Part shown: positions 1-62,055 of the stretch, piece by piece
Position numbering within the stretch: position 1 is the stretch's first letter
Layout: the number at the start of each line of letters is the position of its first letter
Assembly (NCBI GenBank): GCA_002269645.1
Contig: NIVC01002295.1
Coordinates: 62,001-126,000, forward strand
Direction of reading: 5' to 3'
Length of the DNA: 64,000 nucleotides
Source of the DNA: Macrostomum lignano
Lineage: Eukaryota
The notes under the pieces: model-generated
Seen by the model: only the letters and a program-made list of their open reading frames with translations
Told to the model about the DNA's origin: nothing
Databases searched by the model: none
Translations under genes and position numbers: made by a program

Positions 1-59
1 TCAATGGCATCCTGCAGTCCGTTGAATGTTGACAGCGATTGTATCTGACAGACTTTGGG

Positions 60-493
60 GATGCGTGAAAGGCAGTCCGCTACTACATTTGATTTGCCTT
101 TCACATAGTTGAGAGTGAAGTTGTAATCTTGTAGCGCTAGAATCCACTTCTGAAGTCGTTTTGAAATTGGCTGCTTGTCACTGAATAGACTCTTGAGTGG
201 CTGGTGATCAGTGAAGACGTGGAACTGTTGATAAGAAGCGTAGAGGAACACGTGTAGCTTCTTTATTGCCCAATAGATGGCGTATGCTTCGCGTTCGAAT
301 CGGTGGATAGCGTTGTTCAATTGAGCTTAACGTCTTAGAGATGTAGGCAACCGGGCGTTGGTGGTTGCTGTCGTCTAGCTGTGAGAGTACTGCTCCAATG
401 GCGGTATCCGAGGCATCAGTGTGAAGGAAGTACGGTTTTCGCGGATTTGGATGAACCAGTAGTATATCCGTAGAGAGAAGTTGTTTCAGCTTT
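60..493 (-). pseudogene. pol: RNase H domain of pol (one apparent 1-nt insertion near 300)
   Basis: Manual translation: FSTDILLVHPNPRKPYFLHTDASDTAIGAVLSQLDDSNHQRPVAYISKTLSSIEQRY, then after a frameshift EREAYAIYWAIKKLHVFLY..FHVFTDHQPLKSL..KRLQKWILALQDYNFTLNYVKGKSNVVADCLSR. Confidence 0.9.
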
Positions 494-1435
494 TCAAAGG
501 CTGTTTGCGGCGTTTGTCCAGACGAATTTGTTGGGTTTTGAAGTGTTTTTGATAATACTCAGAAGTGGTTGTACTACTCGTGAGTAGCCAGCAATGTGCG
601 TTCGGTAGAAATTTGCAAGTCCAAGGAAAGATTGTAGTTGTTTTACCGTTTGAGGCACAGGGAAGGTCTTGATTTTCTCGATGAGGCTGGGTGCGGGTCT
701 AATGCCTTGAGCAGAAACCACAAATCCAAGATATTGTACCTCTGTTTTAGCAAAGATGCATTTTCGTAGTGAAATTCGCAATCCATGATGTCGTAACTTT
801 TGGAAGAAGCGTTCGATTTCTTTGAGCATGCCGGTGAAGTCTTCGGCGATGAGCATGACGTCATCCAAGTAGGCAATCTGATTTGGAGAGTCAGCTGTTA
901 ACAATGCTACAAGACGGCACATTAAGCTAGGACTGGACTTGAGTCCTTGAGGTAGTCGATTGAATTCCCAAAGTAGGCCGTTGGGTGCAATGAACGCAGT
1001 GTATTTTGTGCTTTCTGGATCGATCCGAACTTGGTAGAAAGCATCTGCTAGGTCACAGAGTGTGTACAGTTTAGCGTTTTTCAATCGATGTAGCAAATCC
1101 GGAATCTTAGGAGGTCGGATGCTAGGAGCACGAATTAGCTTGTTCAGTTTTCGGTAATCCGTCACGAGTCTTAGTTGTCGGCGACCTTGAGCGTCGAGCG
1201 TCTTCTTTTCCACGAGAAGACATGGACTTGAGTATTCAGATTCACTCGGACTGATGATTCCTTTTGACGGAAGTTTTCGATAGTTCGTCAAACCGTTCTT
1301 GTAGTCATGAGCGATTGGATAGGGTCTGGACGTGACTGGCTCAGAGTGTGGGTGTAGATGCAGGTGAGCCGTGTATTGGGTAGAGCAACCCATGTCGGTT
1401 GGCAGTAGTGCCAAGACGTCACGGTACTTGTTCAT
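494..1435 (-). CDS. pol: Reverse transcriptase domain of pol (fragment between frameshifts)
   Basis: ORF 494..1435 contains SPCLLVEKK, LRLVTDYRKLN, DLADAFYQV, FNRLPQGLKSSP, AYLDDVML, KCIFAKTEVQYLGF and LQSFLGLANFYR. Confidence 0.95.
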   Translation of the reverse strand: MNKYRDVLALLPTDMGCSTQYTAHLHLHPHSEPVTSRPYPIAHDYKNGLTNYRKLPSKGIISPSESEYSSPCLLVEKKTLDAQGRRQLRLVTDYRKLNKLIRAPSIRPPKIPDLLHRLKNAKLYTLCDLADAFYQVRIDPESTKYTAFIAPNGLLWEFNRLPQGLKSSPSLMCRLVALLTADSPNQIAYLDDVMLIAEDFTGMLKEIERFFQKLRHHGLRISLRKCIFAKTEVQYLGFVVSAQGIRPAPSLIEKIKTFPVPQTVKQLQSFLGLANFYRTHIAGYSRVVQPLLSIIKNTSKPNKFVWTNAANSL

Positions 1436-1785
1436 TAGAGTAACTAATTGTTCACTCTGCTCGTTGAGAGGTGCTGGTTGGCTTGCTTGAGTTGAGTACG
1501 AATCATGTCAGTCGTTGGTGTTCTTGCTGCAGCGTGCGTAGATTGTTGATTTGAGCTGCTGGTCGTACGATGTTGTAGTCAGACATGTTAGCCAGATTTC
1601 CAATGACTTGTTGAGGATGCAAGGTTTGCGTTGTCAGCGACGGTTGGCAATTTCCACAGTGATAGTTTGTCCGTCCGGGTTGACAGAAACAAGGCAAGTT
1701 GGTATCATCAACTGGTGTTTCTGGATCGTGTGGTCCTTAGGGACGAACAGGACAGGAATCGTTGGCTCATGTCGAGAAGAGAGTT

Positions 1786-2263
1786 TCAGCGTGACTTGGT
1801 GGCGTTGTCTGTGGTGGTAACTCTAGCTTGTTTTGCATCACCGCAGAGGTTTCTTGCAACTGTTGGATGGAGTTGAGCATCGTGCAAATTGCTCATTGCC
1901 AGCTTAGCTGTCGCTTTCGAGTAGTCGAATTGTAGTGGTATTCCCAGTGACTTAAAGGTTTCTACTCCTAAGAGCAAATCATAGTCAGCGTCGGGGTGTC
2001 GAGCACAAAGGCCGATATCTTGTGGTTGCGTCCATCGATTTCGAGATCAAAAGTGCCTTTTTGTTGAGGTTTAGTTGTTGTCCTCCTGCACAAATGGCGT
2101 TCATGTTGGTGTCTTGTAGTGGTACTCGAAGCTTCTTTGGCGAATGCCGGTGAGATGCAGGAGATCGAGGCGCCGCTGTCAATGAGGGCGGTGCATCTGT
2201 GTCGAGTATGCGGTGCGTTGCGGCACACAGTTGATCATAGTTGGCTGTTGTTAGATGCTTCAA
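1786..2263 (-). pseudogene. pol: Retropepsin aspartic protease of pol (frameshifted)
   Basis: ORF 1968..2228 has RCTALIDSGASISCIS. The C-terminal motif (D)MLLGVETFKSLG continues in ORF 1786..1977. Confidence 0.85.
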
Positions 2264-2398
2264 AACAAAGGCGTATGAGTAGTTTGCTGGCCATTTTGGA
2301 ACTTTGGTTCTGGCGGTGGTCTCCGTGGTGGCGGAAGGGTGGCGCGAAGTTCAATCGTTTCGATGGGTGCCGAAGTGTTGGCGCTTGTCTCGGTGGTA

Positions 2399-5176
2399 TC
2401 AGTTGCTGTTGTTGGGTAGTCGTTTCGTGATTCCACTCGAGTTGGAGTTCGTTGTTGCCGCAGCACTTGTATAGTGTGCGTTCTGCCGTAACGGATGGTG
2501 CTGGCGACCGCAGAGTCGGCCAAGATTGCACACGAAGATAATAACGGCAATGTAGACGATTACAGCTGCTGTTAAGACGAACTTTTCTTGATAGTTTGCG
2601 ACTAGTCGATCCCAGTTGAATATCGACGAAGACCATAGATTGAAGAGAGCTAGTTTTGAGTCCAGGAATGCACTGTCAGCATGTGCTGTTCTGTGTCGTG
2701 TTCGATTCGGAAGTTTGAAAACTGTAATCAGAAAATCGCGAGTTTGCATGAACTGGTGCATTAGGTCGGTCACCGTTATTGGGCTACGAAGTGAAGTATA
2801 ATTGATATCTCCCATAGGTTTGAAGATGCTCTCGGAGACGGAAGTTTGCAAATCGGACAACCGATAGTTTTCATCGGATCTGACATTAGCGGTTGTGGGT
2901 TCAAATCTCGAAAAATTTAGTGTGGTCTTGAATAGCATCGATTGTTTAGGCAGGTAGTAGTATGGGAAGGCGTCGCATGAGATTAGAGCTGGAGTAGCTG
3001 TGGAGACAATACGAGTCGTTGTATCCAAAAATCCAAGAACAGTATAGTTTTGTAGGCGGAATTCCAGTGGGGGCGCGTGAAGCATTGGTTCGTCTTGTAC
3101 TTTGGTTGGACAAAGCGAACTGATGTAGGGTTTGCACTGGTAGACGAAGAGGTATCCAGCAATGGATCTAGCTCGCAAGAAAGGATCATTTAATAAGAGT
3201 CGAGCAGCGAGCGTTGGTTGTGTGTAGTATAACTGTCGATTGTACTTGAGATTAGTTGCGTACATCATGCATTGTGTAGTTGCAGCTGCCTCTGTACTTG
3301 GAGAAGGTCTTTTCGAGCTTTACTAGCAGCTCCTTGTAGTTGTCCAGCAAGAAGTTCAGCGGATGCGAACGTTGATGAAAGTTGCGCAGTAGAGTTGCCT
3401 GAAGGGGCTGCGATGGTTTTGTCATCTGTGCTTCGCTTGTTGCGTGGTAGTAGTAGGAGATCCGGTTGACTACCTTGTGGTTCGTGATGTGGAACTGCTA
3501 GATTCGTATGAATAGAAGCCAGTTGTGGATTGTTGTTGTCGCTGGTGAGTTGTGTGAAGGTTGAGGTTGCAGACTTTGCTGGTGCACTGGTTGTGCTGCT
3601 AGAGGTTGAGGTTGTTGGCGGTAAAGTGGTGGTGGTACGAGGTTGTGTCGTCACTTTTGTTGTCGTCGTAGTTGGACTGCTGTCGTTGTTGCTGCTGAGG
3701 TTGTAGCAGTTGTGGTTGTTGAAGTTGTCGGTGTTACGGTTGTGGTAGGTATTGTTGTCGTTGAGCTGGTGGTGTTGTCATTGTAGTCGGTGGTGTTGTT
3801 GTTGTAGTCGGTGTGTTGTCGTTGTAGTCGTGGGTGTTGTCGTTGTAGTCGGTGGTGTTGTCGTTGTCAAAATTGTAGTTGTTGGTGTTGATTTTGTAGT
3901 AGTTAGTATCGTAGTTGTTGGCGTCATTGTTGTAGAAGTGCTTGACGTCGGTGGATGATCAGGTCGTTCTTGTCGTAAAGGTTGCGGCGGTAGGAATTGT
4001 CGTGACTGTGTTGTCGTAGTGAAGGATGTTGAGTCGTCGATTGCTGAACTGGTAATATAGTTGGTGGCGTTGGTAGTATGGCTGGTGGTGAACGACGTTT
4101 TTGTCTCGAAGAAGTGGTTTCTTCGCTAATTTGAGGTTTTGGAGTAGCTTCTTCTAATGGGCTTCGTAAGGTGGCGAGAAATTCTGCTTCTTTGTTGTCG
4201 AGGATGTCTACGTATAGACCTTGCGTTGAAAGGTACAACGTCTTACGGACGCCAGTGCAGGTGAGAGTGTGAGTCGACGGCACTGGGTTGAAGGTTAGTC
4301 CCAATGTTTGGTCATTAGTTAAGAACAAGCCGGAGTTTAAGTTACCTTCAAGAGTACGAAATGGTTTTAAAGGACAATCAGCGAGCGGTGGAGGTGTCCA
4401 AATAAGATTTAGATGTCTTGGTCCTTTCACGTCAATTTGGTAGATTGCTTCAGTTTCCAAAGGATCCAGGGGGATGTTAGTATCGGCAAAGGTAGGTTGA
4501 AAGCTCGCATTTCTTGTGCAGTTGTTTTAATTGTACAAAATTTGTCGGCGAGTTTGCAGTTGTCATTGGGAAGGACAAAGATTCCATTTTTTGATCTGCT
4601 GTTGAGTAGGCTGGGATTCCGGTAATCACTGTTGTTACTATTTGTTCTGAATGGGAACAGGAGTGCAACGCATAGCATTTTGCGTGTTGAATGTCGATTG
4701 CAGGCGTTGGATAGACTGAGTTGACGCAGTCTTTAACACTAATGATCCATCAGGCGATAGCTTTGTTCGTGCCCAGTTTTCACAATCAGCTTGAGTGACT
4801 GGTTGCGGTTCCAACTCTACCAGGGCGGATGTCCAGGTTCTTATCACCGCCTTATCACATCTAATAGTGATTTTTTCGCGGAAACAGACAGTCATAACCA
4901 GGGAACTGGTTTCTACGTTCGTTGTGTAAAGTTCCAGTTTCAACGGGAGTGTCGGCGTTGTTTGGTGTTTGAGCTGTTCGCAACGGATCTCATGTGGTAT
5001 CGTGAAAATTCGTGGGATCTGGTTGTACGGACAGACCATTGGTGTGTCAATGAAGCCCTCGTGAGATTGTCTCTCAATCGATGGTGGGGTTGACGTCGTT
5101 ACCGGCGTAGCGTTGGCTAGTGCGAAGAGTGAAGTTGCTAGGCACAGGAGAAAAAGTGTCAGTAGTGATCGGCGAA
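2399..5176 (-). pseudogene. env: Env-like class III (herpes gB / chuvirus GP / rhabdovirus G-like) fusion glycoprotein, split across several frames by indels
   Basis: Signal-like segment RRSLLTLFLLCLATSLFALANA (~5110-5176). Cys-patterned ectodomain (VCPYNQIPRIFTIPHEIRC; VCFREKITIRCDKAVIRTW..QPVTQADCENW). Furin-type sites RQKRR and RNKR. gB-like helix AGQLQ..(C)MMYATNLKYNRQLYYTQPTLAARLLL..RARSIAGYLFVYQC. Sequons NST, NYT, NFS, NYT, NRT. C-terminal TM FVLTAAVIVYIAVIIFVCNL (~2520-2582). Confidence 0.75.
3590..3960 (-). repeat. Thr/Pro/Ser-rich mucin-like coding repeat inside the env-like gene
   Basis: Plus strand is (gtt/gtc/gtg/gta)-rich, giving ACN codons on the minus strand (TTTQPRTTTTLPPTTSTSSSTT and similar). 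Confidence 0.8.
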
Positions 5177-7019
5177 TTCCGACGGAAGCTTTCACGGTTT
5201 TCTCGCGGTTGTTGTTGCTGGTCGGTGGAGTGTAGGTGTCAGTCATTCTTTCAACCGTACAAAGGCGGATAGAGTTGATAGTCGCAGAAGCAGTAGTCGG
5301 TTTTTTGAGTAAGGATTTCAGCTGCTTAGCGTCTCCAGAGTAGCGAATTTCGTTTCCAAAAGTCGGTGGGCGTTCATCAACTGTAGCAATGTGCATCAGT
5401 TGGGCAGACTCGGGAGCGTCGTGAGTCGTCCATCCAATCTGCGGCTGTTGATTCCATCCTGGGTGGGACGTTTCAGGGTCCTGAGCAGTGATGGCGCGTA
5501 TCGGTGGATATTGTTGTTGCGCAAATCTCGGAGGTTGTCGTTGATTGTTGGCGCCGTTGTATCGAGGCGGATAGCGTTGCTGAGGCCGGTTTCCATAGTC
5601 TTGACGGGGTGGAAATCGTGATTGTTGTGTTGCCGGTGGACCGTAGCCTTGTGTACGTTGGGCTCGTAGTCGGCACTGGTTAATAGAGTGTCCTGGTTTT
5701 CGGCAATAGTTACAGGTCAATCGTGGCGGTCCCTGCTGGTAACGATTTCGCGGGGCATCAGAGCCGTATTGGGCTGTGTTCCTTCGATCACTTGAGTTAG
5801 GTCGGAAGGGACGAGGTTGTTGGTCATTCCTTCGACGACAGTCGGTGGCATAGTGTCCAGGTCGACCGCAATGAAAACAAGTGGGCTTCTGTTGCATATT
5901 AGCGATAGGTGGCTTGGTTTGTGTTTGCAGGGAGGCAACCACCTGCTGATTGGCTTCCTTCGTCGTTTTTTCTAAGGTAGTTAGACGCTCTGTGAGAGCT
6001 TTCAAGTCAGTGCCATCAGAGTCCATGGTGGAGTCGCGGATTTGTTCGGCGCGGATGGCCTTGTTGATTAGCGTACTTTCCGTGGTGATATTTTGCTTCA
6101 AGAGTTCTCGTTTGATGTAGGGTAGAGCATTATTGATAGTCGTAGCCATCAGGGTAGCAAGGAAGTCTCGGTTGCGCTGGTCGATGACAGCTTGGTTCGC
6201 GGGTGGTGTTTCCGGACCGGCACCTTCCGGAAATTCTTCCGGTATTTCCGGCATAGCTGACCTGAGCTTTCGACGAATATCGGTGAAATAAGACAGGAAC
6301 GGTTCGCCGTACTGTTGTTTCCGGGTTGTTGCATTATGCAGCGTTAGAGCCGAGCCAATGGTTACTTCCCGAAGGCGTTGAGACAGTGCCTCAATGGTGG
6401 CTGGATAAGAGGCTTGGACTGCGGCAGAGAGGCGACTATATTCGAGTTTAAGAAGGTCATTCAGTAGTCGCGGGAAGAGCCGAATCTTTGCGTTCTCCGA
6501 TAGTCCAAAGGAGCGTGTGATCAAGTCGAACTCTTCAGTGAAGGAACGGAAGTCATGCATTTGGTCGATTCCTTTCAGGGATTGACGAATTTCAGCAAGA
6601 GCAGTAGCTGAGACGGGATGGTTTGATTGCAATTGCAGACTGCGGTTCATAACATCAGTAAGTTCACGGACAGCATTTGTCGCTGCAGCATCAACATGGG
6701 GAGCGCCGTCCTGATCAGCCATATCTAGAGTAGATTCTTCAGCAATATCGTTTGGGGCTTGTTGAACTGTTTCGTCCGCGTCTGTTAGGATGGAACTGGG
6801 TGCTGGTGAGTGTGCACGGTTGTGTTCAAAATGATCCGCGAGAGGGTTATTAAACTCAACGTTATTTGGTATAAACAGGTTAGGTACTGGTGAACTATTT
6901 CGTGGGAGCTGTTCACCTATTTGGCGGTCAGAAGTTTCTAAATTTTGTTCAGGGGGTCTGTTAATATTTGAGCTTTGAAAAACTGGTCCGGAACGTAAAT
7001 CTCGGACAGGTGTGGTCAT
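4638..7019 (-). CDS. gag: Gag fused in frame to the Env-like N-terminus (likely ATG at 7019, MTTPVRDLRS)
   Basis: Single ORF 4638..7046. Capsid-like helical region (FRSFTEEFDLITRSFGLSENAKIRLF..RKQQYGEPFLSYFTDIRRKL), knuckles CFHCGRPGHYATDC (~5838-5879) and CNYCRKPGHSINQC (~5673-5714), a Q/R/P-rich linker, then a hydrophobic signal and Cys-rich ectodomain with no intervening stop. Confidence 0.9.
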   Translation of the reverse strand: MTTPVRDLRSGPVFQSSNINRPPEQNLETSDRQIGEQLPRNSSPVPNLFIPNNVEFNNPLADHFEHNRAHSPAPSSILTDADETVQQAPNDIAEESTLDMADQDGAPHVDAAATNAVRELTDVMNRSLQLQSNHPVSATALAEIRQSLKGIDQMHDFRSFTEEFDLITRSFGLSENAKIRLFPRLLNDLLKLEYSRLSAAVQASYPATIEALSQRLREVTIGSALTLHNATTRKQQYGEPFLSYFTDIRRKLRSAMPEIPEEFPEGAGPETPPANQAVIDQRNRDFLATLMATTINNALPYIKRELLKQNITTESTLINKAIRAEQIRDSTMDSDGTDLKALTERLTTLEKTTKEANQQVVASLQTQTKPPIANMQQKPTCFHCGRPGHYATDCRRRNDQQPRPFRPNSSDRRNTAQYGSDAPRNRYQQGPPRLTCNYCRKPGHSINQCRLRAQRTQGYGPPATQQSRFPPRQDYGNRPQQRYPPRYNGANNQRQPPRFAQQQYPPIRAITAQDPETSHPGWNQQPQIGWTTHDAPESAQLMHIATVDERPPTFGNEIRYSGDAKQLKSLLKKPTTASATINSIRLCTVERMTDTYTPPTSNNNREKTVKASVGIRRSLLTLFLLCLATSLFALANATPVTTSTPPSIERQSHEGFIDTPMVCPYNQIPRIFTIPHEIRCEQLKHQTTPTLPLKLELYTTNVETSSLVMTVCFREKITIRCDKAVIRTWTSALVELEPQPVTQADCENWARTKLSPDGSLVLKTASTQSIQRLQSTFNTQNAMRCTPVPIQNK

Positions 7020-10000
7020 TAACAAGAATTCAATCAATAATTTCAAGGCAACAATAGCACAAAAGTGTAACTAATAGCAAAGTAGAGTGTCAAATTCAAA
7101 GTGAGCAAACGGCAATGGCTTTCAGGGTTGCGGTTGGCGGACTGGCTGGGAAAGGGAGAAAAGGAGAGACTGTGTAATTTTTTAACTGTGATCTGCGACG
7201 AGCTTTGAAAATCGAAGTAATTTTGAATTGAACGGCCTTTTGATCGGTTCTGAAACTTTGAATTTTGAAATTTTGAACTCGGAAATCTTGAATTGAACTG
7301 CCGTTTGATCGGTTCTGAAACTTTGAAACTGAATTTGATAAAGGAGCTCCTGAATGTTGAACTAGACGGACATCAGTGGTGGCCAATAAAATCGAATTTG
7401 TATCATTGAAATCGGCAGTTTTCTTTTTCTTGAAGTCGGCAGTTTATTCTTTTGAAGTCGGCAGTTTTCTTCTGAGAATTTGTTCTGGCTTTTTGAATTT
7501 CGAATTTGAATTTTGAACTATCTGACGAGTTTCAGCTAGGGGGGTTGATTTCATAATTTTAAGCAAGCGTAGAGTAATGTTTTTGTAGTTTTGTAAATTT
7601 GCTATTTTTTAATTTTTGAAAATTTTATTATTTTTATTGATCGGACTGATCATTTTGCAAATTTTAACATGATAAGAGCACTACGGATTATACGAAATAA
7701 ACTATTAGCAATGGCATTGTTTTTGTATTTTCAAGTTTTATTATTTTTTGCGATCTAATGATCATTCTTGAGCTTTGTCATAAGCGAAGGGGATATGGGG
7801 TTACCAAAAAGCTCGCGCCACTGGCAGTATGGGGGAAAAATTGAGGTTATTTTGGTCTTAATCCATCATGCGAAACGGGAGGGGGCTAGGGACAGATCCC
7901 AGGGGAAGTCGGTTGTCAGAGAGTGCGGAAAAAACATCGCTGGGCCGGTGATGAAGTGGCATGATAAGGCTGGCCTGGACAGTTTGATGAGGAAAAAGAT
8001 TTTTTCGTGGGAAACGAAGTTGATTGATGGCTTTAATCAAGAAAGGGGATCTCTCTGGAGGGTCAAGTAGGCACGCAAAGTCTGATGTGGGCAGTTTGTT
8101 TAAGATTAATATTTATTGGAGGGAACTGGAGTTGATTAAACACGCAAGAAATTCCCAGCATCCCGAATGATCCATAGAAGGCAACTGCCAGAATCAGCAA
8201 TCCGAAAAAAAACTTGGGTCGATGAGGATTTGATGGATGGGGCTCGTGGGGTTTGCAAACAGTGAGTTTGGAGTGTTTAATCAAGAAAAGTAATGGTGGG
8301 CTAGGCAAGCGGTCTACGAAAATAGGAAAAGTTTTCCGGATGAAGCACGCAGGTTCGGCAAACAGTTGGTTGGGGCTTTAATCAAGGAAAATGATGAATG
8401 GTCAGGCAAGCAGCCTGTCTGATAAGCGAAAAAGTTTTCTGACAGCAAGAAATTGGTGGCTCCAGAGTTTGATTAATATTTGCTGTAGTGACTTCGTTTG
8501 AATAGCTCGTCAGGTTTTTTGCGTTTTCGTTCTTTCTTTCGGGCGCTTAACGGCGCAGAGAATCTGAGATAAGCCAGTTTTCTAGATGTGGCCACACACT
8601 GGGAAAAACCGAGGAGGAAAAACGAATGGCGCAGTCGCTTTGGAGAGTCTCATACTTGTATGAGGAAGTCCAGAGCAAACGTTGCTATTCTGTGGAAAAG
8701 CAATGAAGAAAGAGGCGTCCAACATTAAATAAACTTGAACAATTGATGATGCCGCGGTCTTTTGAAAAATCGAAGCTTTGAAGCTTTAACAATTGAGGAT
8801 CCGAATAACTGAATTGAATTTCTGCATTGAAGCTCTGAGGCTTGAGAATAAGAACTCGATATCAGACGTTCGACGACGTTTCTTGAATTGAAGTGAAATT
8901 GAAATTGTTCCGGAACGATAATTTATCCCGGGTAGCATTTTGACGTCAATTTGCGGTTGCGTTGACGTCGCAAAAATTACCTTCGCAAATCTATTCACCC
9001 CAGCCCGTCTTCGTTGATATTGTAGTTTATTTTTGCATAATTAGATGCCAGAGTCAATATGCATTTATATTCATCATTTTGCTAGCTCAATTATACCTGT
9101 AAAATAGCAAAGAAGTAACGTAAAATATTCGTTGAAAGTAGGTTGAAAAATCAACGTCAAACTTTAGTCATTATGGAACCCAAAATTTGACGTTTCTATG
9201 CTGCATTACTATATAATAACGTAGATTGAATGATTTTTATAACACTGAAAAAAGTAAGGGAAAAAGTAAGGCTCGTTTTTTTACAGTTTTATTTTGTTAA
9301 TACGTATCGTTAAAATCGTATATTTTTGAATAATTTGCTGCATGCTCAATCATGCCGATCAATGGGGGTTGTTTTTCACTAAGCTGTGTCAGGCAGCTAG
9401 GTATATGAAACTTCACGGTGATACAACACATCTTTCTGTTTGACTGAATTTTATTTTACATCTATATTTTGGCGGCCTTAAATATACCATAAGAAGTTTG
9501 ATGTTAGAAGGAGATAAATGCAATAGCAAAGCATAGCTAATGCAATGGTCTAGCTACTAATGATAATTAGCTAATTTAATTATAGAATCTTTTATTAAAG
9601 TTTCTAATTTTCCGTATACTACTTTACCTTATCTCATTTCTTATTCAGTACTGTATGTGATTTTTTATTCATAGGAATTATAAAGTAATATATTGGGCTA
9701 TATAGGCCCCTAAAATACTGCACTGATTAAAATTTACAAGTGATTAGAGTTAGGCATAATTCCTATCAGAATAATTATTGCATGGAAATTGAATTCTTAC
9801 CTATCAGACAACAAAGAACTGCTTGATTTTGGTGTCAATCTTAGGCCTAGCCTGGGATGTACAAAACTTATTAGTTAAACCAGTTTATTAAATAAACCAG
9901 TATCAACCTAATGAGTCTAAATTGATATTCTGTTCTAATTTTTGCTGGCACTAGAATTCAAAACTGCATCCAAGGTCTAATTTCAGGATGCCATTTTTTA

Positions 10001-10029
10001 ACCCAAAATAAAAGGAAAAAACAAGATAT

Positions 10030-10260
10030 AATATCCTATATACTAAAAATGGTCTGTCTGTGTCTATCTATCTATCTATCTATCTATCTATGTGATCGAT
10101 TAGAGAAAAAATGGCTGGACCGATTTTGTTCAAACTTGCACTGTTCGATCAGAAATTTTCCCGTGACTTCATATCTAAATTTCCACTTTAGGATGCAATT
10201 TGAAAGGTCAAGATTTACTAGCATCTCTAAAAAACATTAGGCATACTTGATATGAAGTTA
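10030..10260 (+). mobile_element. Possible non-autonomous Helitron/DINE-like 5' fragment nested in the CACTA element
   Basis: cctatatactaaaaatggtctgtctg followed by (ctat)n and ggctggaccgatttt resembles the 5' end-microsatellite-core layout of invertebrate non-autonomous rolling-circle elements; no 3' hairpin identified. Confidence 0.35.
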
Positions 10261-10444
10261 CTATTTTTTGTCTTGGTTTGATAAATATTTAGTGGGCCAC
10301 CTATCATGAGTTTTTAATATATACAAAGCATACTGTCTATCCATTATTTATATATGTAGCTATTTCATGTTAGCATTTTATATAATATTTAGAGTTTCTT
10401 GGTTAACTGATTGAAATCTTTAATAACTTGTACGAGTACTACCA

Positions 10445-10790
10445 GGGGGCCATAGCCCAGAGGTAGCGCAGCTGCTCTGGTGGGCCAGTGACCTAGGCTC
10501 AATTCCAAGTGTAGTCACATTAATTTGTGGCTGAATTGGAATCTTGGCTTGGCTCTGCTTGTGCAATTAATGGCCTTGAGAGCCAAACCCCCAAGGCGCA
10601 GTGAAGTGTACATGCCTAACGATAAAATAAAGTTAGGGTGGCTGTACACTCCTGTGAGAGTGTGTGCCTGCATATGTATCCGCGCGTTTGTATGCCTGCT
10701 CAGGGGAGCCGGCGGAATGGGCAATAATGCCTCTCACTGGTTGTGTGCTTATGTCGCTTAAAGTGCGCCAGGGTGTACAAATATATAAAG
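10445..10790 (+). mobile_element. tRNA-derived SINE-like insertion in the CACTA element (3' end approximate)
   Basis: GGGGCCA start, A-box-like TAGCCCAGAGG (10453-10463), B-box-like GGCTCAATTCC (10496-10506), followed by a unique GC-richer body in AT-rich context. Confidence 0.5.
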
Positions 10791-10851
10791 TTTAACAACA
10801 CTTTTTTAAATAAATTGTATACATATACTGCCTAAATGCTGCCTATTTCAG

Positions 10852-12852
10852 ATGGCCACTTGGGTGAAGAAAAAGAGAACAGGAGAGAGGTTGCTACTAA
10901 ATGCCATTAGGGATACCAGTTCCAGCTCTCATGACGAGGAAGAGGGCATTTGTATGAAAAAATCATCATTGCCCATTGGAGCAGGTTGTTCTAAATGGAC
11001 ATTGGGTAGTCAACCTGAGGAAGGAGATAATCATCAGGAGGATAGTAATAACAATTCGCCATCTGAATCCGTCTCCTCCGATTCAGAGACTGACGACTAT
11101 GACGACCATGAATCTGATGTAGATCTGAGTGAGGCTTTGAAAGAATGGGCAATATCCGACAACATCCCACAGGCCTCTTTGCGACGTCTTCTGGCTGTTC
11201 TGCGCAAGAAAGACCCATCCCTTCCTATTGACCCAAGAACGCTGCTTGACTCTCCCCAGGTTGTATTAGGAGTTAAACACGTTGATCCAGGTAGCTACTA
11301 TCATTTTGGGCTCCTGAATGGGATTAAAAGGCTACTTGACGATGTGGGCTTTGAGAATAATGTCAACTTGAACCTGTTTTTAAACATCGATGGTGTACCA
11401 CTTTTTTCATCGACTGTGGACGGCTTTTGGGTGATTCTAGCCGCATTTCGTGAAATTCGGAATTCTGTCTTTGTCGTTGGAATCTACCACGGCAGGGCAA
11501 AGCCTCAGAGTGCCGAGGATCTTCTCACGGATACTATTGAAGAGTTAAAGACGCTGGAGCAAAATGATTTGGAGATTCGACCCGGTGTGAAAATTCTCCT
11601 TGCGTGTGTTTGCTGCGACACACCCGCACGCGCTTTTGTCAAGAATGTCAAAGGCCACTCTGGCTATTATGGTTGTGACCGTTGCATTGCGAAAGGTATA
11701 TACATTTGTAACCGTGTTGCTTTCTCTGAGAATGGTACTCTCCGAAGTGACGCCACCTTTCGCGACAGAACTCAACCGGAGCATCACCACGGACCGAGCC
11801 CCTTTGAATCCTTGTCTATTGACATGGTGGCTCAGTTTCCACACGACATGTTGCACCTTATCTGCAAAGGAGTGACACTGAAGCTGCTGGAAGTATTAAG
11901 CAATGGTCCAAATAAGTACAGGCTCGGCCAGAATGAGAAAAGGTACTTTGATCAGCTTATAAAAGAGACCTGCAAGGTTCTTCCTTGTGACTTTGTTCGA
12001 AAGGTGAGCCCTATTCGCCACCTTCACAAATGGAAGGCGACTGAATTGCGACTTTTTACAGTGTACATCATTCCGTTCGTCATCCCCAAGGTTGTACGTG
12101 ATTCAAAGCTACAAACTATATTCATGACGTATTTCATCGCTATCTACATCATGTGCTGCGAAAGGAAACAATACCAAGGAGCGCAGAGCGTTGAATACAT
12201 TCGCCGCCTTGTGTCATATATGCACGATCTCCTTCGCGAGGCTCTCGGAAATGCATTTTTCACATACAATATTCACAACCTTCAGCACCTAGTTGATGAC
12301 TTCAACCGGTTTGGTCCAATAGACACATTTAGCAACTTTAAGTTTGAGAACTTCTTGAGATTCATCAAGAAGAAGATTCGATCGCCCAGTCAACCACTGA
12401 ATCAGATTGTCAAGCGAATACATGAGAGTGGACAGTTTCTTGGGCAGCGTCCTGTATCCCTATTGGGAATAAAGTCCCTGACACCCTTGCAACCCATCAT
12501 TCGTGATGAGGGTGTAGCTTACCGGCGACTCGTACTGAATGATGTCAACACCATCCTGAAGAGGAAATCTCCGGATTCATTCGTCTTAACCTCTGATCGC
12601 AAAGTCTTCAAAGTTTCTCATTTTGTGAAGGAGGGCGACGATATCAGGGCCATTGGCCGGCTCTTTTGTAGCCACGACAACTACTTTCTATTGCCGTTGC
12701 TGTCCATGGATTTAGACATTTTCAAAGTGTCTGAATTGTCGCGCTCGGTTTCTGTCATACCTGTTAAACATATCATGTGCAAAATGTTCCTCTTTCCAGA
12801 CGACGGTGGCCACCAGTTGGCCATACCACTTGCTCATACTTTCCGTCAGTGA
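10852..12852 (+). CDS. CACTA/EnSpm DDE transposase, 666 aa, uninterrupted
   Basis: Motifs NIDGVPLF, CCDTPARAFVK.VKGHSGYYGCDRC, HDMLHLICKGV, WKATELR, YNIHNLQHLVDD..RFGPIDTFSNFKFEN. The ATG directly follows a cag, so an upstream exon is possible. Confidence 0.93.
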   Translation: MATWVKKKRTGERLLLNAIRDTSSSSHDEEEGICMKKSSLPIGAGCSKWTLGSQPEEGDNHQEDSNNNSPSESVSSDSETDDYDDHESDVDLSEALKEWAISDNIPQASLRRLLAVLRKKDPSLPIDPRTLLDSPQVVLGVKHVDPGSYYHFGLLNGIKRLLDDVGFENNVNLNLFLNIDGVPLFSSTVDGFWVILAAFREIRNSVFVVGIYHGRAKPQSAEDLLTDTIEELKTLEQNDLEIRPGVKILLACVCCDTPARAFVKNVKGHSGYYGCDRCIAKGIYICNRVAFSENGTLRSDATFRDRTQPEHHHGPSPFESLSIDMVAQFPHDMLHLICKGVTLKLLEVLSNGPNKYRLGQNEKRYFDQLIKETCKVLPCDFVRKVSPIRHLHKWKATELRLFTVYIIPFVIPKVVRDSKLQTIFMTYFIAIYIMCCERKQYQGAQSVEYIRRLVSYMHDLLREALGNAFFTYNIHNLQHLVDDFNRFGPIDTFSNFKFENFLRFIKKKIRSPSQPLNQIVKRIHESGQFLGQRPVSLLGIKSLTPLQPIIRDEGVAYRRLVLNDVNTILKRKSPDSFVLTSDRKVFKVSHFVKEGDDIRAIGRLFCSHDNYFLLPLLSMDLDIFKVSELSRSVSVIPVKHIMCKMFLFPDDGGHQLAIPLAHTFRQ

Positions 12853-13568
12853 GACAGAGCTTACTTTTTAACATACTGCAAAGGTTTGATGTGTCTGCAT
12901 TCAGAAGCAAATGCTATTCTTTAAACTTTAATCATGATACTTTTCTTTAGCTGTTATAATTTTGTACGTAAATTTATTTTAAGGTTCTAATAATATGTTA
13001 TTTTCTTTAATTACGAGCTAGATTCTGTTTCAAAATATTCTACTCATGTTTGAACTTGCAACTTATAGGCTTTTCTGTAAGCGTGTGGCAGCCTTGGACG
13101 TAGATCAACCAGTCGATGCAAAAAATTGAAGCATAGCAGATTGTTTAGAATCTTCAGTGTATACATATAACAGTAGTAATAGCAAAATTATTAATAATAA
13201 TAACAATTTCTTAGCATCAAACCGTCCAGGCCTGACAAGCGTAGCCAATTAAACATACTACTACTGTAATTTCGCCTCCTCAAAGTATAATTAATAAAAA
13301 TACTCGTCGCAGTATAATATGGCCGTATTTTTGGCAACTTATTTGGTACTAAAATACATCAAAGCTGCTCTGTTCATCAATTCTGTAGAAATCTGAAAAT
13401 ACAAGTATTGCAATAGTAGATCCATGAATCTGTAAATGTTATAGAAAAGAGCTGTAATAAAATCAGCGTAGATAAGATTATTTAATTTACTGCAGTTTTA
13501 TATACTAATAGAACATTACAACCTTTTTTCATGCATTTGAAGCTCTGAAACACCTCCAGTGTATCACA

Positions 13569-15414
13569 ATGAACACTGCAAAGTATCACCTAGTAAGCTT
13601 CGACGATGGCGCTCAAATTGTGCTGGACAGTTGGCTGTTCCAGGATGAAGATGGCAATGTCTTCTGCCTCCTCCCCAAGACAACCAAAGCTACTCAATGT
13701 CTGCGCAACAAAACTGAACCACACCCATCCTGGAGGGAATTCAAGGTGTCGGAACAGCTCATGTCTAGTGGTACGTTTTTAATGCCCTCTTCATGTCGAA
13801 CAGTGCTAGTAATATAGTATAATAGTATTTATAATTTAGATATATTCAATTTAGATATAATGGTGAATCTATTGGGTAGAGTCAATGTTGCCGTCATTTT
13901 TGCCATGCTGTACTCCTTGAGCTCCCCGCAGCTCTCGACATCGAGTTGAACGCCCTGTGGAAGTCCACAACACACACAGACAAAGGTCGATTGTAGTATG
14001 GGAAACCATACACACTGAAGGCTGGCACGACTCAACCTAAAAGCGCATGTATTTTTCGTAAATATGATTGCAGATTTTGCCTTACCCTTTCAGATAATCT
14101 GAACTTTCTCACTTATCGGCTGAAGCGATTGGAAGAAAAGAATAGTTTGAGTGAGACAGAAGTTGAGAGGAAACGACAAAGGCCGGCAGTAGAGAGGCTG
14201 GTTGATGGCTTTAGGACATCGTCGATTCCTGCTTCATCTTCCACTAGATCCAAAAAGACATCGAATATGCCACCGTCGTCTTCGGCTTCGGTTGTCGTAT
14301 CTGAGCTTGCGTCACCACCTCCGCCTCCAGTTTTTCAACTATCGCCTTCACCACCTCAAGCATCAGTTACCGTACACGATACATTCGAGAGCCAATCTGT
14401 GCTGGAATCTGCTACACAGGATCCTGACTTGAGGAGAAAGAATGAAACTGCCAGTTGCAACCGTCACTGCTGTCACATGGAGAGTATGTTGCCTTTTAAT
14501 TTGATTTCATCTGACTTTACTCTGACAGTTTCAGTTTTTTGTATTGTATTGCGCTCGCGTGATACATGTCTCTACTCTGTTCTAGTGGTTATTTTACTAC
14601 CTATTTGTAAATTCATGCCAGTGTAAACATATGCATGCGCTTGTATTGTTACTGCAGAGTGGCTGGCGAAGCTCTTTACCGAAATGAAGGAAATGAAGGA
14701 AGAGATCCGAGCGTTAAGGTGTGGCAATACTACTGATGGCAATGGGATGTTGCACCAGTTGCCCATGAGCAGTGTAAACGGGCTCCTGTCCTTCGCCGAT
14801 GAGATAGCCACATGTACGGAAAAGAAGTCTGTCTTGGTGAGAGAAAATTTATAGTTTTCTTACGTATGATCAGCTTCCTTTTTATCTACGAGCTCGTATG
14901 TACTTATTATTTAGTTGCTTATTTTCACATGTATTCCTGTACCTTTGCCGTATTCGTGCTACCTGCACGTATCGATCACTAGTCCTACCAGTAGCTTGCA
15001 AAAATCTGAATTTTAGATTCACTACCTGTCCGGCTTCGCTGATGATGGCGTCAGTATCAGCCGAGTGACGACCACTCTGTTGAAGAAAATTGCCCTGCCA
15101 TCTGTGTTAAGTATGTTTACAACAACTGGCCGGCAGGATTCACGCATATTTCCCATCGGGCTTACTGCGGCCATAGAAAGTGAGTATGTTCGAACATGTG
15201 AAATCAACCTCTGTATGTATAGTCGCTCATTGTGACGCATGAAATACTAATTGGCTCATCACTTTGTTTCACAGGAGTCATTCATAATAACAAGCGATTG
15301 AGATCTCGTTCACGAGGCGTTGGAGCGCAACATTTTGTGGCCGAGTCCTTGAAGCATATCAAACTCAAGGAGAAGAAGCGCGTAGAGACTGCGGATGACG
15401 TGAGGGAAACTTAG
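13569..15414 (+). CDS. CACTA accessory (ORF2/TnpA-position) protein, 5 exons, ~357 aa
   Basis: Exons 13569-13770, 14094-14483, 14658-14836, 15017-15179, 15275-15414, all GT-AG and summing to 1074 nt (divisible by 3). N-terminal YHLVSFDD..IVLDSW..C..P..P.PSW domain, S/P-rich linker, coiled-coil (KLFTEMKEMKEEIRAL), and a C-terminal helical domain resembling DUF4806-type proteins. Confidence 0.75.
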
Positions 15415-15630
15415 ACTTCGCTGTTGCTCTTCCTTCATTTTGGCTTCCTTCATCTCTCATGATGCCAGCTCATGCTGGAGAACTATAGTAGCTTGAATAT
15501 TTTGTAAAGTTCAATCATGCAGCTGCTATCATACCTTTCATAAATCCATCAATTTTGACCATCTTACGAGCGTACATGGATATCATGTAACTGTATTGAA
15601 AATGGAGCTTGAAAACTGGTTCTATGACTA

Positions 15631-16498
15631 GGCCGTATGAATAAACTGAGCAAATTCTCAAACTCAAGCAAATGCTCAGGTCAATAAGAATAAGTTGAGC
15701 TTTTGCTCATGAGTAAATGCTCGTGAGCATTTACTCCGACTCATGAGAAAATTCTCAGCTGCAGAGCAATTACTCCAGTCAGTAAGAATAAAAACATGGC
15801 CATGGACAAAAGATCGGAGCAATTGCTCACAAAATGTTGAGACAGCTACCAGGTACCTAGCTGACTCAACTGGCAAGCAACTGCAGTTGAATGGCGGAAT
15901 TTATGCCTGAAATCGCTCCTGCAAGGCGCAAGCTCTACCTTGAAAGGCTTTCGTCTGATGTCCTTCGAGATTGCGAGTATCAGTCTTGCCTTCATATTGG
16001 CCAGCTTTTTGTTTATTTTTTTTGAATCCGTGCTCTTGCCACTAAGCTCCAACTCGCTCTGGATAGATAGCAATGCTGCCTTTTTCTTCTCCGCGATACC
16101 AGGCGTCTTTGCTTTGTCAGCAAGACACGGATGGCGTATTACGATATTCACAAACTGCTCGTCGCTGGCATCATCAGTATCCATTTCAGATCAGTGCTTG
16201 CTAAGCTGTGTTTGCTATGCTGAGCTATGCGGCTATGCAACACTATACTTAGCTTCGATCGTTAGTGAGTGCTGCCGCTTCTCTTGCTGCTGCTGCAGAT
16301 CTGCCTGTCTATGGCTTTAAGCAGCCAGGCTGCTGCTCAAGCGGTTGAGCAATTACTCTGAGTCTGTGTTTTTTGTTTATTCATACTGAATTGTTGCATT
16401 TGCTCTGACTCTGAGTATTTACTCAGCCTCGAGAAAATGCTCCAGCTCAGAGTGCGAGCATTTGCTCAAGAGCATTTGCTGATTTTATTCATACGGCC
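15631..16498 (-). mobile_element. Non-autonomous PIF/Harbinger-like element (868 bp) nested in the CACTA element
   Basis: 15-bp TIR GGCCGTATGAATAAA at 15631-15645 and its reverse complement at 16484-16498; TA on both flanks; subterminal GAGCA/TGCTC repeats; internal MADF-like ORF. Confidence 0.7.
15846..16184 (-). CDS. MADF/Myb-SANT-like DNA-binding protein, 112 aa (possibly truncated or spliced)
   Basis: FVNIVIRHPCLADK..EKKKAALLSIQSEL..DSKKINKKLANMKARL matches the trihelix MADF pattern of Harbinger second ORFs. Confidence 0.65.
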   Translation of the reverse strand: MDTDDASDEQFVNIVIRHPCLADKAKTPGIAEKKKAALLSIQSELELSGKSTDSKKINKKLANMKARLILAISKDIRRKPFKVELAPCRSDFRHKFRHSTAVACQLSQLGTW

Positions 16499-18470
16499 TA
16501 TTGATTTTGCATTGCCGAGTTCTAAGAAATAAATTATAAAATGGGTAACTTTAAGCATAAATAAAAAATTTAGACTTTAGTTGTGTAAATAATAAAAAAG
16601 CAACCATTAGATTTGAACGCATTTAGCCAGAGTCCGTAGGTATAGCGTTACCTGCGCCAAAAAAATTTCCAGAATGTGAGCACGTCTTCAAGTGTTCTCT
16701 ATGAACAACATGCAGCTATAGCTACACACAATCATTTAAATTTATTACGCTTGTGTTGCTTCCTTTTTGTTCAATAAAACCAAATATTGTTTTGAACTGT
16801 CGTTCGTGCATTGTTCCACATGTCTACTGTTCTATTGTTTTTCACTGCACTGTTTTGTACTATTTTACACAATGATACTATCACTCATTTCCACTTCGAT
16901 TGTTTCCAATAGCTAATATTCTAATATAGTATTCCATACTTCTAGTATTGCAAATTTCTACTCCGTAGCTTTTTATTATTGCTCTACTTTCTATTATTTT
17001 ACAGGCTACTAGCTCTGTTGCTATGCTCGTAATTGTCGTCATCCTTGGATTTGTTCCATGCCACTGTTTTCTACATTAACTATATTCTGTTTTGTTTGTA
17101 CTAACTTTTTGGCGCTATTTTCCGTTCTCCATCTTTTAATCTAATTTATTTACCGTTCCTTTTCATGAATTTTCATTTGCTAATATAAGAATATACTTGT
17201 AAATTACAATTTGTACCCGGTATATCAAGTGTGGTTAGTGTGCATTACTTATATCCACACACATAATTCAATAAGGTTGACTTCAGAATGCAGAGATAAC
17301 TTTCAATCATAAAGCTAGTAACATTTATTTTCTTAAAAGACATCATAAAAGTCATTTTGTACATTGAAAAAGCCATTTTTATACGGTAAAATTTGAGTAA
17401 ATTTTTTACGTCAAAGCAACGTCACAAATCTAGGTCAAAATTACGTAAAAAATATCGACAGAATTGACGTCATCTCGACGTCATAGTTTGACCGATTTTC
17501 AACGTCATTTTGACGTCGCGCAACGTCACTTTGCTACCCGGGTATTGACTTTCATGGATCCTTTGAATCTGAAAAAAAAAACTTGAATCAGGTCTCAGTG
17601 CACTGGACAAAAACTTAGAACCGATTTGAATTCTGAATTTGAATTTGAGAGCTCGTGATTTTCGATTCATTCTTCGAATATGTATTATTGACAGTCTCGA
17701 ATGCTCAAAGGGGAGGGGGGGGAAGCCAGTCCAACCGTTCACACCCATCAGCCACGCCTATAGCTGTCTACCCCATGCAGGGCATAGCGGCTATTGTGGT
17801 GAAACGCATCGGAGGAAAAGTACGGTCAGGGAACCAGTGAAATATTTTAAAATATATGTTATTGTTCTTCTTCTGGTCTCTCACTTCTATGGCTCTTGTT
17901 CTACTTCAAATATCAATGTGAGAGCCAAATAACTGAGGCGGCGGATTCAACTGACTTTTCCTGATGATGCAAACACTTGATGGTAACTTACAGACCGTTG
18001 TATTTGATGGTCACAATCTCGAGATGTTTTCTCACAAAATATAATGTCTAAGGTGGAATTCCAAATAAGAAGCTCGTTCGATTTAAGTCACAAGGTGTTT
18101 CTAGTTGTTCGGGTGAACCGAAGGTTCAGTCTATTGTGAAACGTGGATTGAGTGTTGGTTTGGCTTTAGTAAGTCGACTTATAAGTTTTGGTGTTTGGGT
18201 TGAGACCCTAACTGTGTCAATCAAAATAGTCAAACGAGGTAAGCTAGGAGAATGGCGAAGGAGAGGCAAGGGCGAGGAGAGGCGGAGCGAGCAAAAGGCG
18301 AGCTTCTTGCTTGGTTAACATGAGCTTTTATAGTACTTTTCAGTCTTGATCGCATTGGATGGTACATAACTGCTTTTCATTGGTTGAGGTTGGGGTCGTG
18401 TCCTCAGCTTTTGCTATTTGGAGCGCATTCATTGGTTAAAATACATTCAATCTGGATGGGAGCTTTCTAG

Positions 18471-21400
18471 AGCCAAAATGTATCACTTCACATCGGCATC
18501 GCCGGCCCGCCGAACAGCTTCGTGTTCTTGACTGGCATCGATGCCAGCGTGAATCTGATCCGCAGCGGCCAGGACATCCTTGAGGACACCGTGACGGGCA
18601 AGCTGAAGGGCAGCGTTCGCGCCTTCAAGAGCTGGATTCGCTGGTCTCGGGTGTTCACCACAGGCAGCGTGCTGAAGGTGAGGCGCGCCTTGCTCAATAA
18701 ACTTTAATCTACCTATAGGTAATAACTGTGTTAAACCTGACGGCTGATTTCCATTTTTAGACGTTGAATCTGCATCTGTTAACTGACGGATTTTTTGAAT
18801 TGGGTATTGCTAAAGCATCAGATTATATATTTTGTGACGGAATACGTAATCTAATATGAATAAATTTCTAAATTACTTGTTAAACTACTTGTTTTAGAAA
18901 GGTACCAGAGACCCATTTTCGAACGGAGGCGTCTGTTCGATGAAGGATCTCCGATGATGTCTCTTTCGATAAACCGAGCCCATGCGCCTGAAGGTCCACC
19001 ACCTGCTCAGCCTGAGAAATCGCAGAAGAGGACTTACTTTCCCGAGACCATGCTCTGGACTATGGTGGAGACTGAGTGAGCCTACTGTACTTGGCTTTGT
19101 GTGCGGTGATCCTACTCAAACTCGAACTCTGTTATCCTACTCAAACTCAAACTCTGTGATCCTACTCAAACTCGAACTCTGTGATCCGATACTCAAACTC
19201 GAACTCTGTGATCCTACTCAAACTCGAACTCTGTGATCCTATACTCAAACTCGAACTCTGTGATCCTACTCAAACTCAATCTCCATCAATGCAGTGCCTC
19301 AGGCCGGGCCAGCGAATCTCTGCAACTGCCAGACACCATCACGAGCTGGGATTTGACGGCGTTCGGCATCTCCAGCCGGCACGCCATCCAGACGGTGCAG
19401 CGCCCCTTCCAGGTGACGAGCTTCAAGAGATTCTTCGCCCAGCTGACGCTGCCGCACTCGTTGATCCGCGGCGAGTCGCTGCTTCTCCGGGTGCTGCTGT
19501 TCAACTTCGACTCCTCCAATCGGCTGACCATCAACGCCACCCTGTTGATCGACTCGAAGGCCTTCGAACTGACGGCGCTGACGGCCGCTGGACAGCCCGC
19601 TGAGCACGCGATTGTCAATGTGGAGTCAAACGGCGTCGGATTGGCGGTTTTCGGCCTGCGACCGAAACTGGTCTCCGAGGCGGCTGCGGTCACCGTGCGG
19701 GCCAGGTGAGCGGGGTTGAGACTAGAGATGTGAATAGATTAATGAGAAAAGCGGATAGACTGATTAAAGATGTGTGGTAGATGTGTGGTAGATGTGTGGT
19801 AGATGTGTGGTAGATGTGTGGTAGATGTGTGGTAGATGTGTGGTAGATGTGTGGTAGATGTGTGGTAGATGTGTGGTAGATGTGTGGTAGATGTGTGGTA
19901 GATGTGTGGTAGATGTGTGGTAGATGTGTGGTAGATGTGTGGTAGATGTGTGGTAGATGTGTGGTAGATGTGTGGTAGATGTGTGGTAGATGTGTGGTAG
20001 ATGTGTGGTAGATGTGTGGTAGATGTGTGGTAGATGTGTGGTAGATGTGTGGTAGATGATGTGTGCCGCATCAAAGCGCATACACATAGAGTTCGCCGCA
20101 TCCCTCAACCTGGCAGAGCCACCTGGCCAGACGGTCGCGCCGAGGTTGACGAGGTGACGCGTACGCTGCCGGTGCTTCCGGAGGGCCGCACGGTGAGGCG
20201 GGCTGTCACTGCCCTGCTGAGCCTGCGGGGCGATCCAACCGGTAGCAATTCGTCCGCCGAGACGGTTCAAAGCGCCGAGATGGTGGAAATTTACTGGCCG
20301 GAGGCGGTCCAGGCGGACGGGTCGATCCTGGTGCCCGGCTCCCAGCTCCTGTCCGTGTCGGTGGTCGGCGACGTCCTCGGCCCGGCCATGGACGGCATCG
20401 GCGGGCTGGTGCGGACTCCGCGCGGCTGCGGCGAGCAGAACATGGTGGACTTCGCTCCCGCGGTCTTCATCTATCGGTACCTCCGTTCGGCGGGCAGCGA
20501 CAGCTCCGCCACGGCCCGCCTGCGCCAGAAGGCCCTGGACGCCATGCGCACCGGCTACCAGAGGGAGCTGACCTACCGACGGGACGACGGCTCCTACAGC
20601 GCTTTCGGCAAGGCCGACGCAGCCGGCAGCGTCTGGCTGACTGCCTTCGTGCTCAGCGTGTACGCCCAGGCGGCCGAGTTCATCGCGGTGGACCCAGCTG
20701 CGGTGACGGGCAACTCGATCATGTTCCTGCTGAGCCGCCAGGACCCGTCTGGCCGCTTCACCGAGCCCGAGGGCGCTCGGGTGCTGGACACCAGCCTGCA
20801 AGGTGAAGCCGGCAAAGCCTCTCTTGGAATGTCGGCCTTCATCTGCTCCGCACTGATAGACGTTCGAGACGCTGTGGAATTGCTGCCGGCCCTGCGGACG
20901 CCTGAGTGGCCGCTGCTGCCCGTGTCCACCGCGCTGCGCCGCTGCGTCGACCTCTTTAAGCTGGAGTTCAAACAGCGGCTGGCCGATTTTGACACGCGCG
21001 ACATGGCGCTGGCCGCCTACTTCTTATGGCGCGCCCAACTGGCTGGCGAAGGAGGAGACGCGACGAAGAGCCTGGCGAAGCGCGTCTGGGAGGCCTTCAA
21101 TGCCCGCGCCGAGAGTGACCACTCGGCGAGACTGTACTTCTGGAAGGTGAGCTTGCCAGGCGGGAACTCCTCTGGACAGTTTTGTAGGCATTTTGCAGCG
21201 GTCAGTTGGATCTTTCAAACGCTGCAAGTTGAGCAGAGTTGGTTGCCAGGTTAGTGTTCAATTGACTAATCCCGATGAAAGCGTTGTCACCGTGACAATA
21301 GTCGCTAAAAGGTCATTGCAAACAACTCACTGGTGACTCTAAGGACTTCTGGGCGGCTCATGCGACTGTTTAAAAACTCAGACGACTGCAATACGATTGT

Positions 21401-59471: not shown

Positions 59472-60084
59472 CTGAGTGTCTGCATCTAACAAAGAATCGT
59501 TTGCAAATCTTCAACTTTATAAAGTTTGATTTTTTATGGTTTGCTTCATTTTTACAAAGCTAAGAACGAAACAAAAAATGGAAACATTTAGTCTTGTTTT
59601 TTTTCTGCCTTTGTGTTTTAATTTTTAAATTGGTTTGGAACAACATTAACACATTTAAACAAACAGTTTTCTACTGTGGCGATAGAATTTAATTTTTTTC
59701 AAATTTCATATCTAAGTACTAAGAGTCCTTACATTTTTGCAACGGTTAACAGCCTTAAAAAGTTTCGATCTGAAGGTACTGATTTTTATTTCCTAAATCT
59801 GTCAGTCAGCTAAAAGTTTGCATCTGGAGACGATGATTCAGCATGAATTATTTTCGTATCCAAGGGCGCAGCCGTCACACCCTGCCTTCGTCACGAATTG
59901 ATCCAGGCGCAAAAGCTTTGACCTTGGCGCATTCGAATCTTGACATCACATGCGACTGCGAGCTCTGGCAGTGCGTCACCGGCGAAATTTTTCGGTTGCT
60001 ATCTGGTTTCGATGGCATATGGTGATTGAAATTCCTGAAGCTATGCACGTGGGCAAACAACTACAAGCGTAGATATTTCTAGCC

Positions 60085-60640: not shown

Positions 60641-60643
60641 AAG

Positions 60644-61927: not shown

Positions 61928-62055
61928 AGTGGCGTCTCTCAGATCAAAGTGGCGTCTCTCAGATCAAAGTGGCGTCGCTCAGATCAAAGTGGCGTCGCTC
62001 AGATCAAAGTGGCATCTCTCAGATCAAAGTGGCTTCTCTCAGATGAACGTGGCAT
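61928..62055. repeat. 20-bp tandem repeat immediately before the LTR
   Basis: agatcaaagtggcgtctctc, about 6 copies. Confidence 0.9.

Follow-up and report, generated by a model that had tools for sequence, protein, structure and literature searches.

The window, by which we mean the whole stretch of 64,000 nt that was analysed (Macrostomum lignano contig NIVC01002295.1, positions 62,001 to 126,000 of the forward strand), contains on its minus strand a copy of an LTR retroelement in which an envelope-like gene is placed between gag and pol. The following features were located, with positions counted from the first letter of the window unless otherwise indicated:

17838..18490, minus strand: 5' LTR (TG...CA, about 655 nt), matching the 3' LTR at 100% identity
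17824..17836, minus strand: primer-binding-site-like sequence, starting with TGG directly after the LTR
8927..17541, no strand assigned: nested foreign DNA of about 8.6 kb in the leader of the window copy
10810-12852, plus strand: intact-looking transposase-like ORF of 680 aa with a weak DUF4218 match, nested in the leader
5169..7019, minus strand: Gag, with its ATG at 7019, a capsid region, two CCHC knuckles and a long linker with a basic end
5879-5838 and 5714-5673, minus strand: CCHC zinc knuckles of Gag
5109..5168, minus strand: internal signal-sequence-like segment SLLTLFLLCLATSLFALANA, with a basic n-region, a hydrophobic core and small residues at -3/-1
2582..5108, minus strand: gB-type (class III) fusogen ectodomain, with several frame changes in the window copy
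3433..4106, minus strand: Thr/Ser-rich mucin-like insert between the furin-like sites RQKR (4106-4095) and RNKR (3444-3433)
2522..2581, minus strand: TM2, the C-terminal anchor FVLTAAVIVYIAVIIFVCNL, with basic residues coming after it
2225..2521, minus strand: predicted cytosolic tail and spacer of about 100-130 aa, in which a conserved WP motif lies ahead of the protease; out of frame in the window copy
1789..2224, minus strand: aspartic protease (PR), LIDSGA at 2186-2169
497..1507, minus strand: reverse transcriptase (RT), YLDD at 871
3..558, minus strand: Ty3/gypsy-type RNase H (RH)
G000:C2295, about 57200-62000, outside the window and downstream of RNase H: integrase (IN), a 318-aa accessory ORF and the 3' LTR, which sits past the left end of the window on the adjoining contig stretch

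By its sequence, this element is a recently spread Ty3/gypsy LTR retroelement of the Metaviridae. Pfam matches follow the order PR-RT-RH-IN with RT and RNase H of the gypsy type, and the best solved relative of its RT is the Ty3 RT (E 2e-42). An assignment to the Belpaoviridae, with BEL/Pao-type Pol and Env after Pol, was rejected, since the Pol domains are gypsy-type and Env lies ahead of PR. In five out of five separate copies checked, the LTR pair is 98.6-100% identical within the copy and a 4-bp target-site duplication is present. Given its identical LTRs and the target duplications, the window copy moved recently. One pattern search with the primer-binding-site-like sequence returned no tRNA match. 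The leader of the window copy, besides its nested DNA, also carries a deletion, and the rest of the window is filled by many minisatellite and microsatellite arrays with units of 8-52 nt (19680-59100).

Two accessory ORFs accompany the family. A Phe-rich ORF of 318 aa between the integrase and the 3' LTR (L041:5349-6302, minus strand) is full length in 11 copies, with 94-100% identity, among 31 matches, and within the genome only near copies of this ORF itself were found. It has no Pfam match and no homologue among 755 candidates, and its Atlas neighbours (0.83-0.87) are hypothetical proteins of large DNA viruses and clan CE proteases (Peptidase_C48, C57), which we regard as a lead only. In the leader ahead of gag lies a Cys/His-rich ORF of 269 aa (L047:5041-5847, plus strand), whole in 3 of 5 leaders checked; it has no Pfam match and is absent from the window copy. 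Accessory ORFs are common, according to the accessible part of PMC5408684.

The genome holds at least 23 copies of the window family at 95% identity or above, all 23 of which are described here, with copies lacking an anchor motif left out of each frame count. The preliminary description held that the frame from Env to PR could not be resolved; across these copies it is resolved, as 12 of 22 lead from TM2 to PR in a single frame without a stop. The second knuckle is joined to the signal segment by an open frame in 18 of 21 copies, and the signal segment to the first Cys in 19 of 21. A conserved stop between Gag and Env, set beforehand as evidence against a joined chain, was not found, nor was any conserved stop or frameshift at either junction. 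The window copy itself is broken between TM2 and LIDSGA, as had been suspected, and also at several places in Env, and these breaks are not a feature of the family. Neighbouring 131-aa stretches in Env, PR and RT are open in 10/22, 12/22, 11/22, 11/20 and 12/20 copies, so the rate of breaks between TM2 and PR is that of the surrounding coding stretches. The 23 gaps that break the frame are spread over 16 sites, of which 13 are private and one is common to 5 copies; every departure is a shortening, and 15 of these gaps are deletions located in runs of equal bases (44% of the bases belong to such runs). No slippery heptamer in the canonical phase was found between TM2 and PR, and a search for a 2A-like motif was also negative. 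The breaks hence look like assembly error or decay rather than a programmed frameshift. None of the 23 copies is open from Gag through RNase H; natural copies do contain an open frame of 2086 aa from Gag into RT and others, of 1753 and 1513 aa, that begin in Env and reach into RNase H.

Uninterrupted frames are found in related families. Searching the genome with Env gave 145 matches, with identity down to 22%, of which 16 lie within open frames of at least 2450 aa. Among 20 fetched relatives of other families, nine are open throughout Gag-Env-PR-RT-IN in a single frame (2458-2866 aa), and the other 11 have the same order in partial frames. The nine sequence types that were compared correspond to about five independent lineages, as they are related in pairs, and the Env of the compared types is 23-43% identical to that of the window family. 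Env is evidently under purifying selection: in the sole unsaturated pair (in the other two of three pairs dN/dS is saturated in most regions) dN/dS is 0.09 for the ectodomain, 0.14 for TM2 and 0.15 for the tail, with 0.69 for the signal segment. In another pair the signal segment is 15% identical; it changes fast, yet its character is kept. The Env tree agrees with the PR-RT tree in the 8 shared rows, and the WP motif ahead of the protease is present in 10 of 11 rows. As regards an infectious endogenous retrovirus, which would form enveloped particles and enter cells by means of Env, the sequences offer only this purifying selection and the intact frames of relatives. At G000:C4009, C272 and C4067, Env matches end early and RT starts only about 400-600 nt further on, which suggests internally deleted derivatives of a related family without TM2 and protease. 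Two tandem copies 14.3 kb apart, apparently with one shared LTR, were observed at G000:C172:385000-422000 (L022, L045, L028).

Thirteen library proteins were also examined, three of which belong to families of the same genome. A knuckle, the segment, Env and a TM are present in P0016, P0026 and P0078, with PR too in two of them; P0010 and P0043 stop within Env, P0006, P0018 and P0076 are without Gag, and P0007 and P0049, with Gag ahead of Env, have no segment at a Kyte-Doolittle (KD) value of 1.6 or above ahead of Env. P0007, which comprises Gag and the start of Env, is labelled as a protein of a bacterial metagenome-assembled genome and is probably animal DNA in a bacterial bin. P0005 and P0011 were rejected as evidence of splicing, as they look like joined gene predictions from the same families.

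The identity of the glycoprotein became apparent from profiles. In single-sequence searches Pfam returned nothing for the whole ectodomain and only a match of E 8e-4 for its C-terminal part, the PDB gave no relevant match to Env, a search for longer homologues retrieved none of 1037 candidates, and the best Atlas neighbour of Env (0.83) is a lead only. A 24-row profile gave a match that covers positions 7-467, and 17 of the 24 rows match Pfam Monjiviricetes_fusion. Because this profile could have drifted through its library rows, a profile was also built from the nine types of this genome alone, and it retrieves Epstein-Barr virus gB with E 3e-15. In an unbroken natural copy the ectodomain comprises 868 aa with 14 Cys, and ten Cys are invariant in the Env comparison. 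An AlphaFold model of the ectodomain of a sister family (pLDDT 70.5, pTM 0.49) matches herpesvirus gB and the nyamivirus, borna- and chu-like glycoproteins with TM-scores of 0.2-0.4, the top viral fold match being the nyamivirus glycoprotein; in this model the domains match and their arrangement is unsure. These results demonstrate that the Env of the window element is a gB-type (class III) fusogen. A furin-like site is present near residue 310-360 in each type, later in the two types with an insert. The window family has two such sites, which enclose a Thr/Ser-rich insert whose length differs among copies; the insert occurs only in this family and its closest sister, the ectodomains of which measure 805-869 aa versus 577-628 aa in the others. 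N-glycosylation sequons are not enriched, with 5 seen against about 8.5 expected.

The two hydrophobic segments that the preliminary description had placed around the glycoprotein are present on the minus strand at 5168-5109 and 2581-2522, within 8 nt of the positions first given, and SLLTLFLLCLATSLFALANA is in one frame with Gag, in a single 810-aa open frame of the window copy. Signal and TM calls rest here on hydropathy and charge scans. Within the 2069-aa frame of a natural copy, the only 19-mers with a mean Kyte-Doolittle value above 1.3 are the two segments (2.11 for the first and 2.73 for TM2, with 1.21 for the next-best 19-mer). The value of TM2 was reached in 1 of 1000 shuffles and that of the first segment in 56 of 1000, which by itself is within chance; the first segment hence needs outside support, and this is supplied by conservation. 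In 8 of 9 sequence types no 19-mer is more hydrophobic than these two; in the ninth an integrase segment ranks slightly above the first segment, and none of the nine has a third segment above KD 1.35 inside the ectodomain. The basic residues noted ahead of the first segment proved to be general, with 3-5 K+R ahead and 0-1 after in all nine types, and the K+R count is higher after TM2 than ahead of it in eight. This charge bias fits an N-in/C-out orientation for the first segment and N-out/C-in for TM2.

The ER lumen is where a class III fusogen with many disulphides has to fold, and the cytosol is where Gag and Pol have to meet RNA. Since one frame contains two segments of fitting polarity, an in-out-in threading of the Gag-Env-Pol chain is the simplest reading of the sequence, and we regard it as probable. 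According to this reading, Gag would be made in the cytosol, and the basic-hydrophobic segment would act as an internal signal sequence that has the ectodomain translocated into the lumen of the ER. Signal peptidase would cut after this segment, leaving Gag briefly anchored in the membrane by the stub, comparable to hepatitis C virus core-E1. TM2 would then stop transfer, such that the tail together with PR, RT-RH and IN comes out on the cytosolic side, with Pol held at the membrane by the Env tail. Furin would cut the ectodomain loop, and the protease of the element would free capsid, nucleocapsid and Pol, with Env keeping a short tail. Equal amounts of particle parts would be made from one mRNA and budding would occur into the ER, the likely purpose being that every part of the particle is gathered at a single membrane, to bud there into the secretory pathway and spread from cell to cell. 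Two points are awkward for this scheme, namely signal recognition after 500-660 cytosolic residues and a 1:1 ratio of Gag to Pol. The comparison of copies and families demonstrates a single frame, the domain order, the identity of the fusogen and two segments with fitting charge bias; the threaded topology proposed at the outset gains support from that frame, from there being exactly two segments and from their charges, and the path of the chain through the membrane is what we infer from them.

The alternative that retains most ground accepts the continuous frame and has mostly separate products arise from processed RNAs, either a gag-pol RNA from which env has been spliced out or a subgenomic RNA for env and pol; in the latter case translation would start at a Met just ahead of the segment, which would then be an ordinary N-terminal signal peptide. 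Such RNAs would ease the Gag:Pol ratio problem, and Cer1, a single-frame gypsy element, splices an accessory mRNA from its genomic RNA, as given in the accessible part of PMC10309623. A Met is indeed present 8-53 residues ahead of the first segment in 7 of 9 types (27 in the window family), but its position is not conserved, and in the other two types no Met occurs within the preceding 60 aa, hence in these two the segment must be internal. A simple consensus scan, which is a weak test, found no donor/acceptor in the window family and no phase-matched pair in 9/9 types. Processed RNAs are further opposed by the fact that no stop has arisen at either of the two junctions in families whose Env identity is 23-43%, and an env-pol RNA would still need TM2 to bring Pol back to the cytosol. 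We consider this alternative unlikely.

Quite improbable, in our estimation, is a variant in which threading holds but the first segment stays uncut as a signal anchor, giving an Env with two anchors and leaving Gag to be freed solely by the element's protease from the cytosolic side. The ectodomain of gB has as a rule a free N-terminus, which counts against such an anchor. In 7 of 9 types the first segment has small residues at -3/-1, and the hydrophobic cores are short and fast-evolving, as in signal peptides. Because the remaining two types are without a strict -3/-1 site, the segment may there go without cleavage and stay in the membrane, and the accessible part of PMC13524379 describes gB-type ectodomains that have on their flanks either a signal peptide plus a TM or two TM domains. 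As to a programmed frameshift or stop between Env and Pol, or an Env that is a decaying passenger, ten copies, the window copy included, lack an open frame from TM2 to PR, and one gap site is common to 5 copies, but the ordinary break rate, the nature of the gaps, the selection on Env, the agreement of the trees and above all the nine fully open relatives, which largely refute it, leave this explanation with hardly any probability.

Returning to the threaded chain, a wider reading can tentatively be put forward, which we hold to be possible though rather doubtful as a whole: that all GAG-ENV-POL elements use a flavivirus-like assembly, hitherto undescribed among retroelements, with Gag, Env and Pol at 1:1:1 from one RNA and budding into the ER, that the stub replaces the matrix lipid anchor in anchoring Gag, that Pol is kept at the same membrane by the Env tail up to the point where the protease acts, and that the furin-excisable, length-variable mucin insert shields the fusogen of the window family. 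Irrespective of this, the element shows that a retrotransposon polyprotein can take in an envelope gene and retain it across very divergent families, without any splice or frameshift being evident from the DNA. If threading is true, it would be a second way of solving retroviral assembly, reached convergently with flaviviruses, and one amenable to sharp, small-scale topology tests.

Among known systems, herpesvirus gB and the nyami/chu/borna-type G (class III, Pfam PF24664) are related to the window-type Env by matches of profile and fold that span most of the ectodomain, at about 10-15% identity, and they are stand-alone glycoproteins with an N-terminal signal peptide. In Flaviviridae and alphaviruses the non-structural enzymes come after the envelope in the same chain. 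Hepatitis C virus core ends in the signal peptide of the envelope and is anchored thereby until cleavage, as described in the accessible part of PMC5402940. The likeness to hepatitis C virus and alphaviruses is one of analogy only, since these are RNA viruses with class II fusogens and no homology is expected. Nematode endogenous retroviruses (NERVs) form a clade defined by monophyly with the nematode NERVs and by a nematode host. They reportedly (Sacco et al. 2022) have a continuous gag-env-pro-pol frame, a nyamivirus-like Env and accessory ORFs. Env and Pol stand in flipped order in NERVs (Sacco et al. 2022, doi 10.1099/jgv.0.001739), as cited in PMC13524379, and the window family resembles them in this flipped order and in the nyamivirus glycoprotein being the top viral fold match of the sister-family model. 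Atlas virus (Belpaoviridae, from Ancylostoma ceylanicum) likewise has one retroelement polyprotein that includes Env, a single 2828-aa chain with internal TM segments, judging from the available part of PMC9094657; unlike the window family, its order is Gag-Pol-Env, its fusogen is class II and phlebovirus-like, and its chain needs no return to the cytosol for Pol.

The closest counterparts are the GAG-ENV-POL errantiviruses with HSV/gB-type Env in Nematoda, Bryozoa and Platyhelminthes (Chary and Hayashi, PMC13524379), and hence the arrangement, initially called unusual for a retroelement, is not unprecedented. As in the operational definition of these elements, the window family has an env-like gene between gag and pol, an Env of the HSV/gB type and an ectodomain flanked by a signal peptide/TM and a C-terminal TM, the last according to hydropathy and charge scans only. 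Ty3/gypsy Pol, LTRs, several near-identical copies and an ectodomain that lies between a signal peptide and a TM or between two TMs are, on the accessible text, common to both. Of five short motifs of the window family searched in the supplements of PMC13524379, one gave a match, which is unrelated. That article, in its accessible part, does not discuss a single polyprotein or its topology, though its Figure 5A may already depict the latter, and the literature searched, with subscription papers mostly outside reach, yielded no paper on the topology of Gag-Env-Pol polyproteins in which threading is stated or tested. The known gene order limits the surprise: on the accessible account the window family is a further case of the published GAG-ENV-POL order, its own additions being two accessory ORFs and a Thr-rich insert that is enclosed by two furin-like sites.
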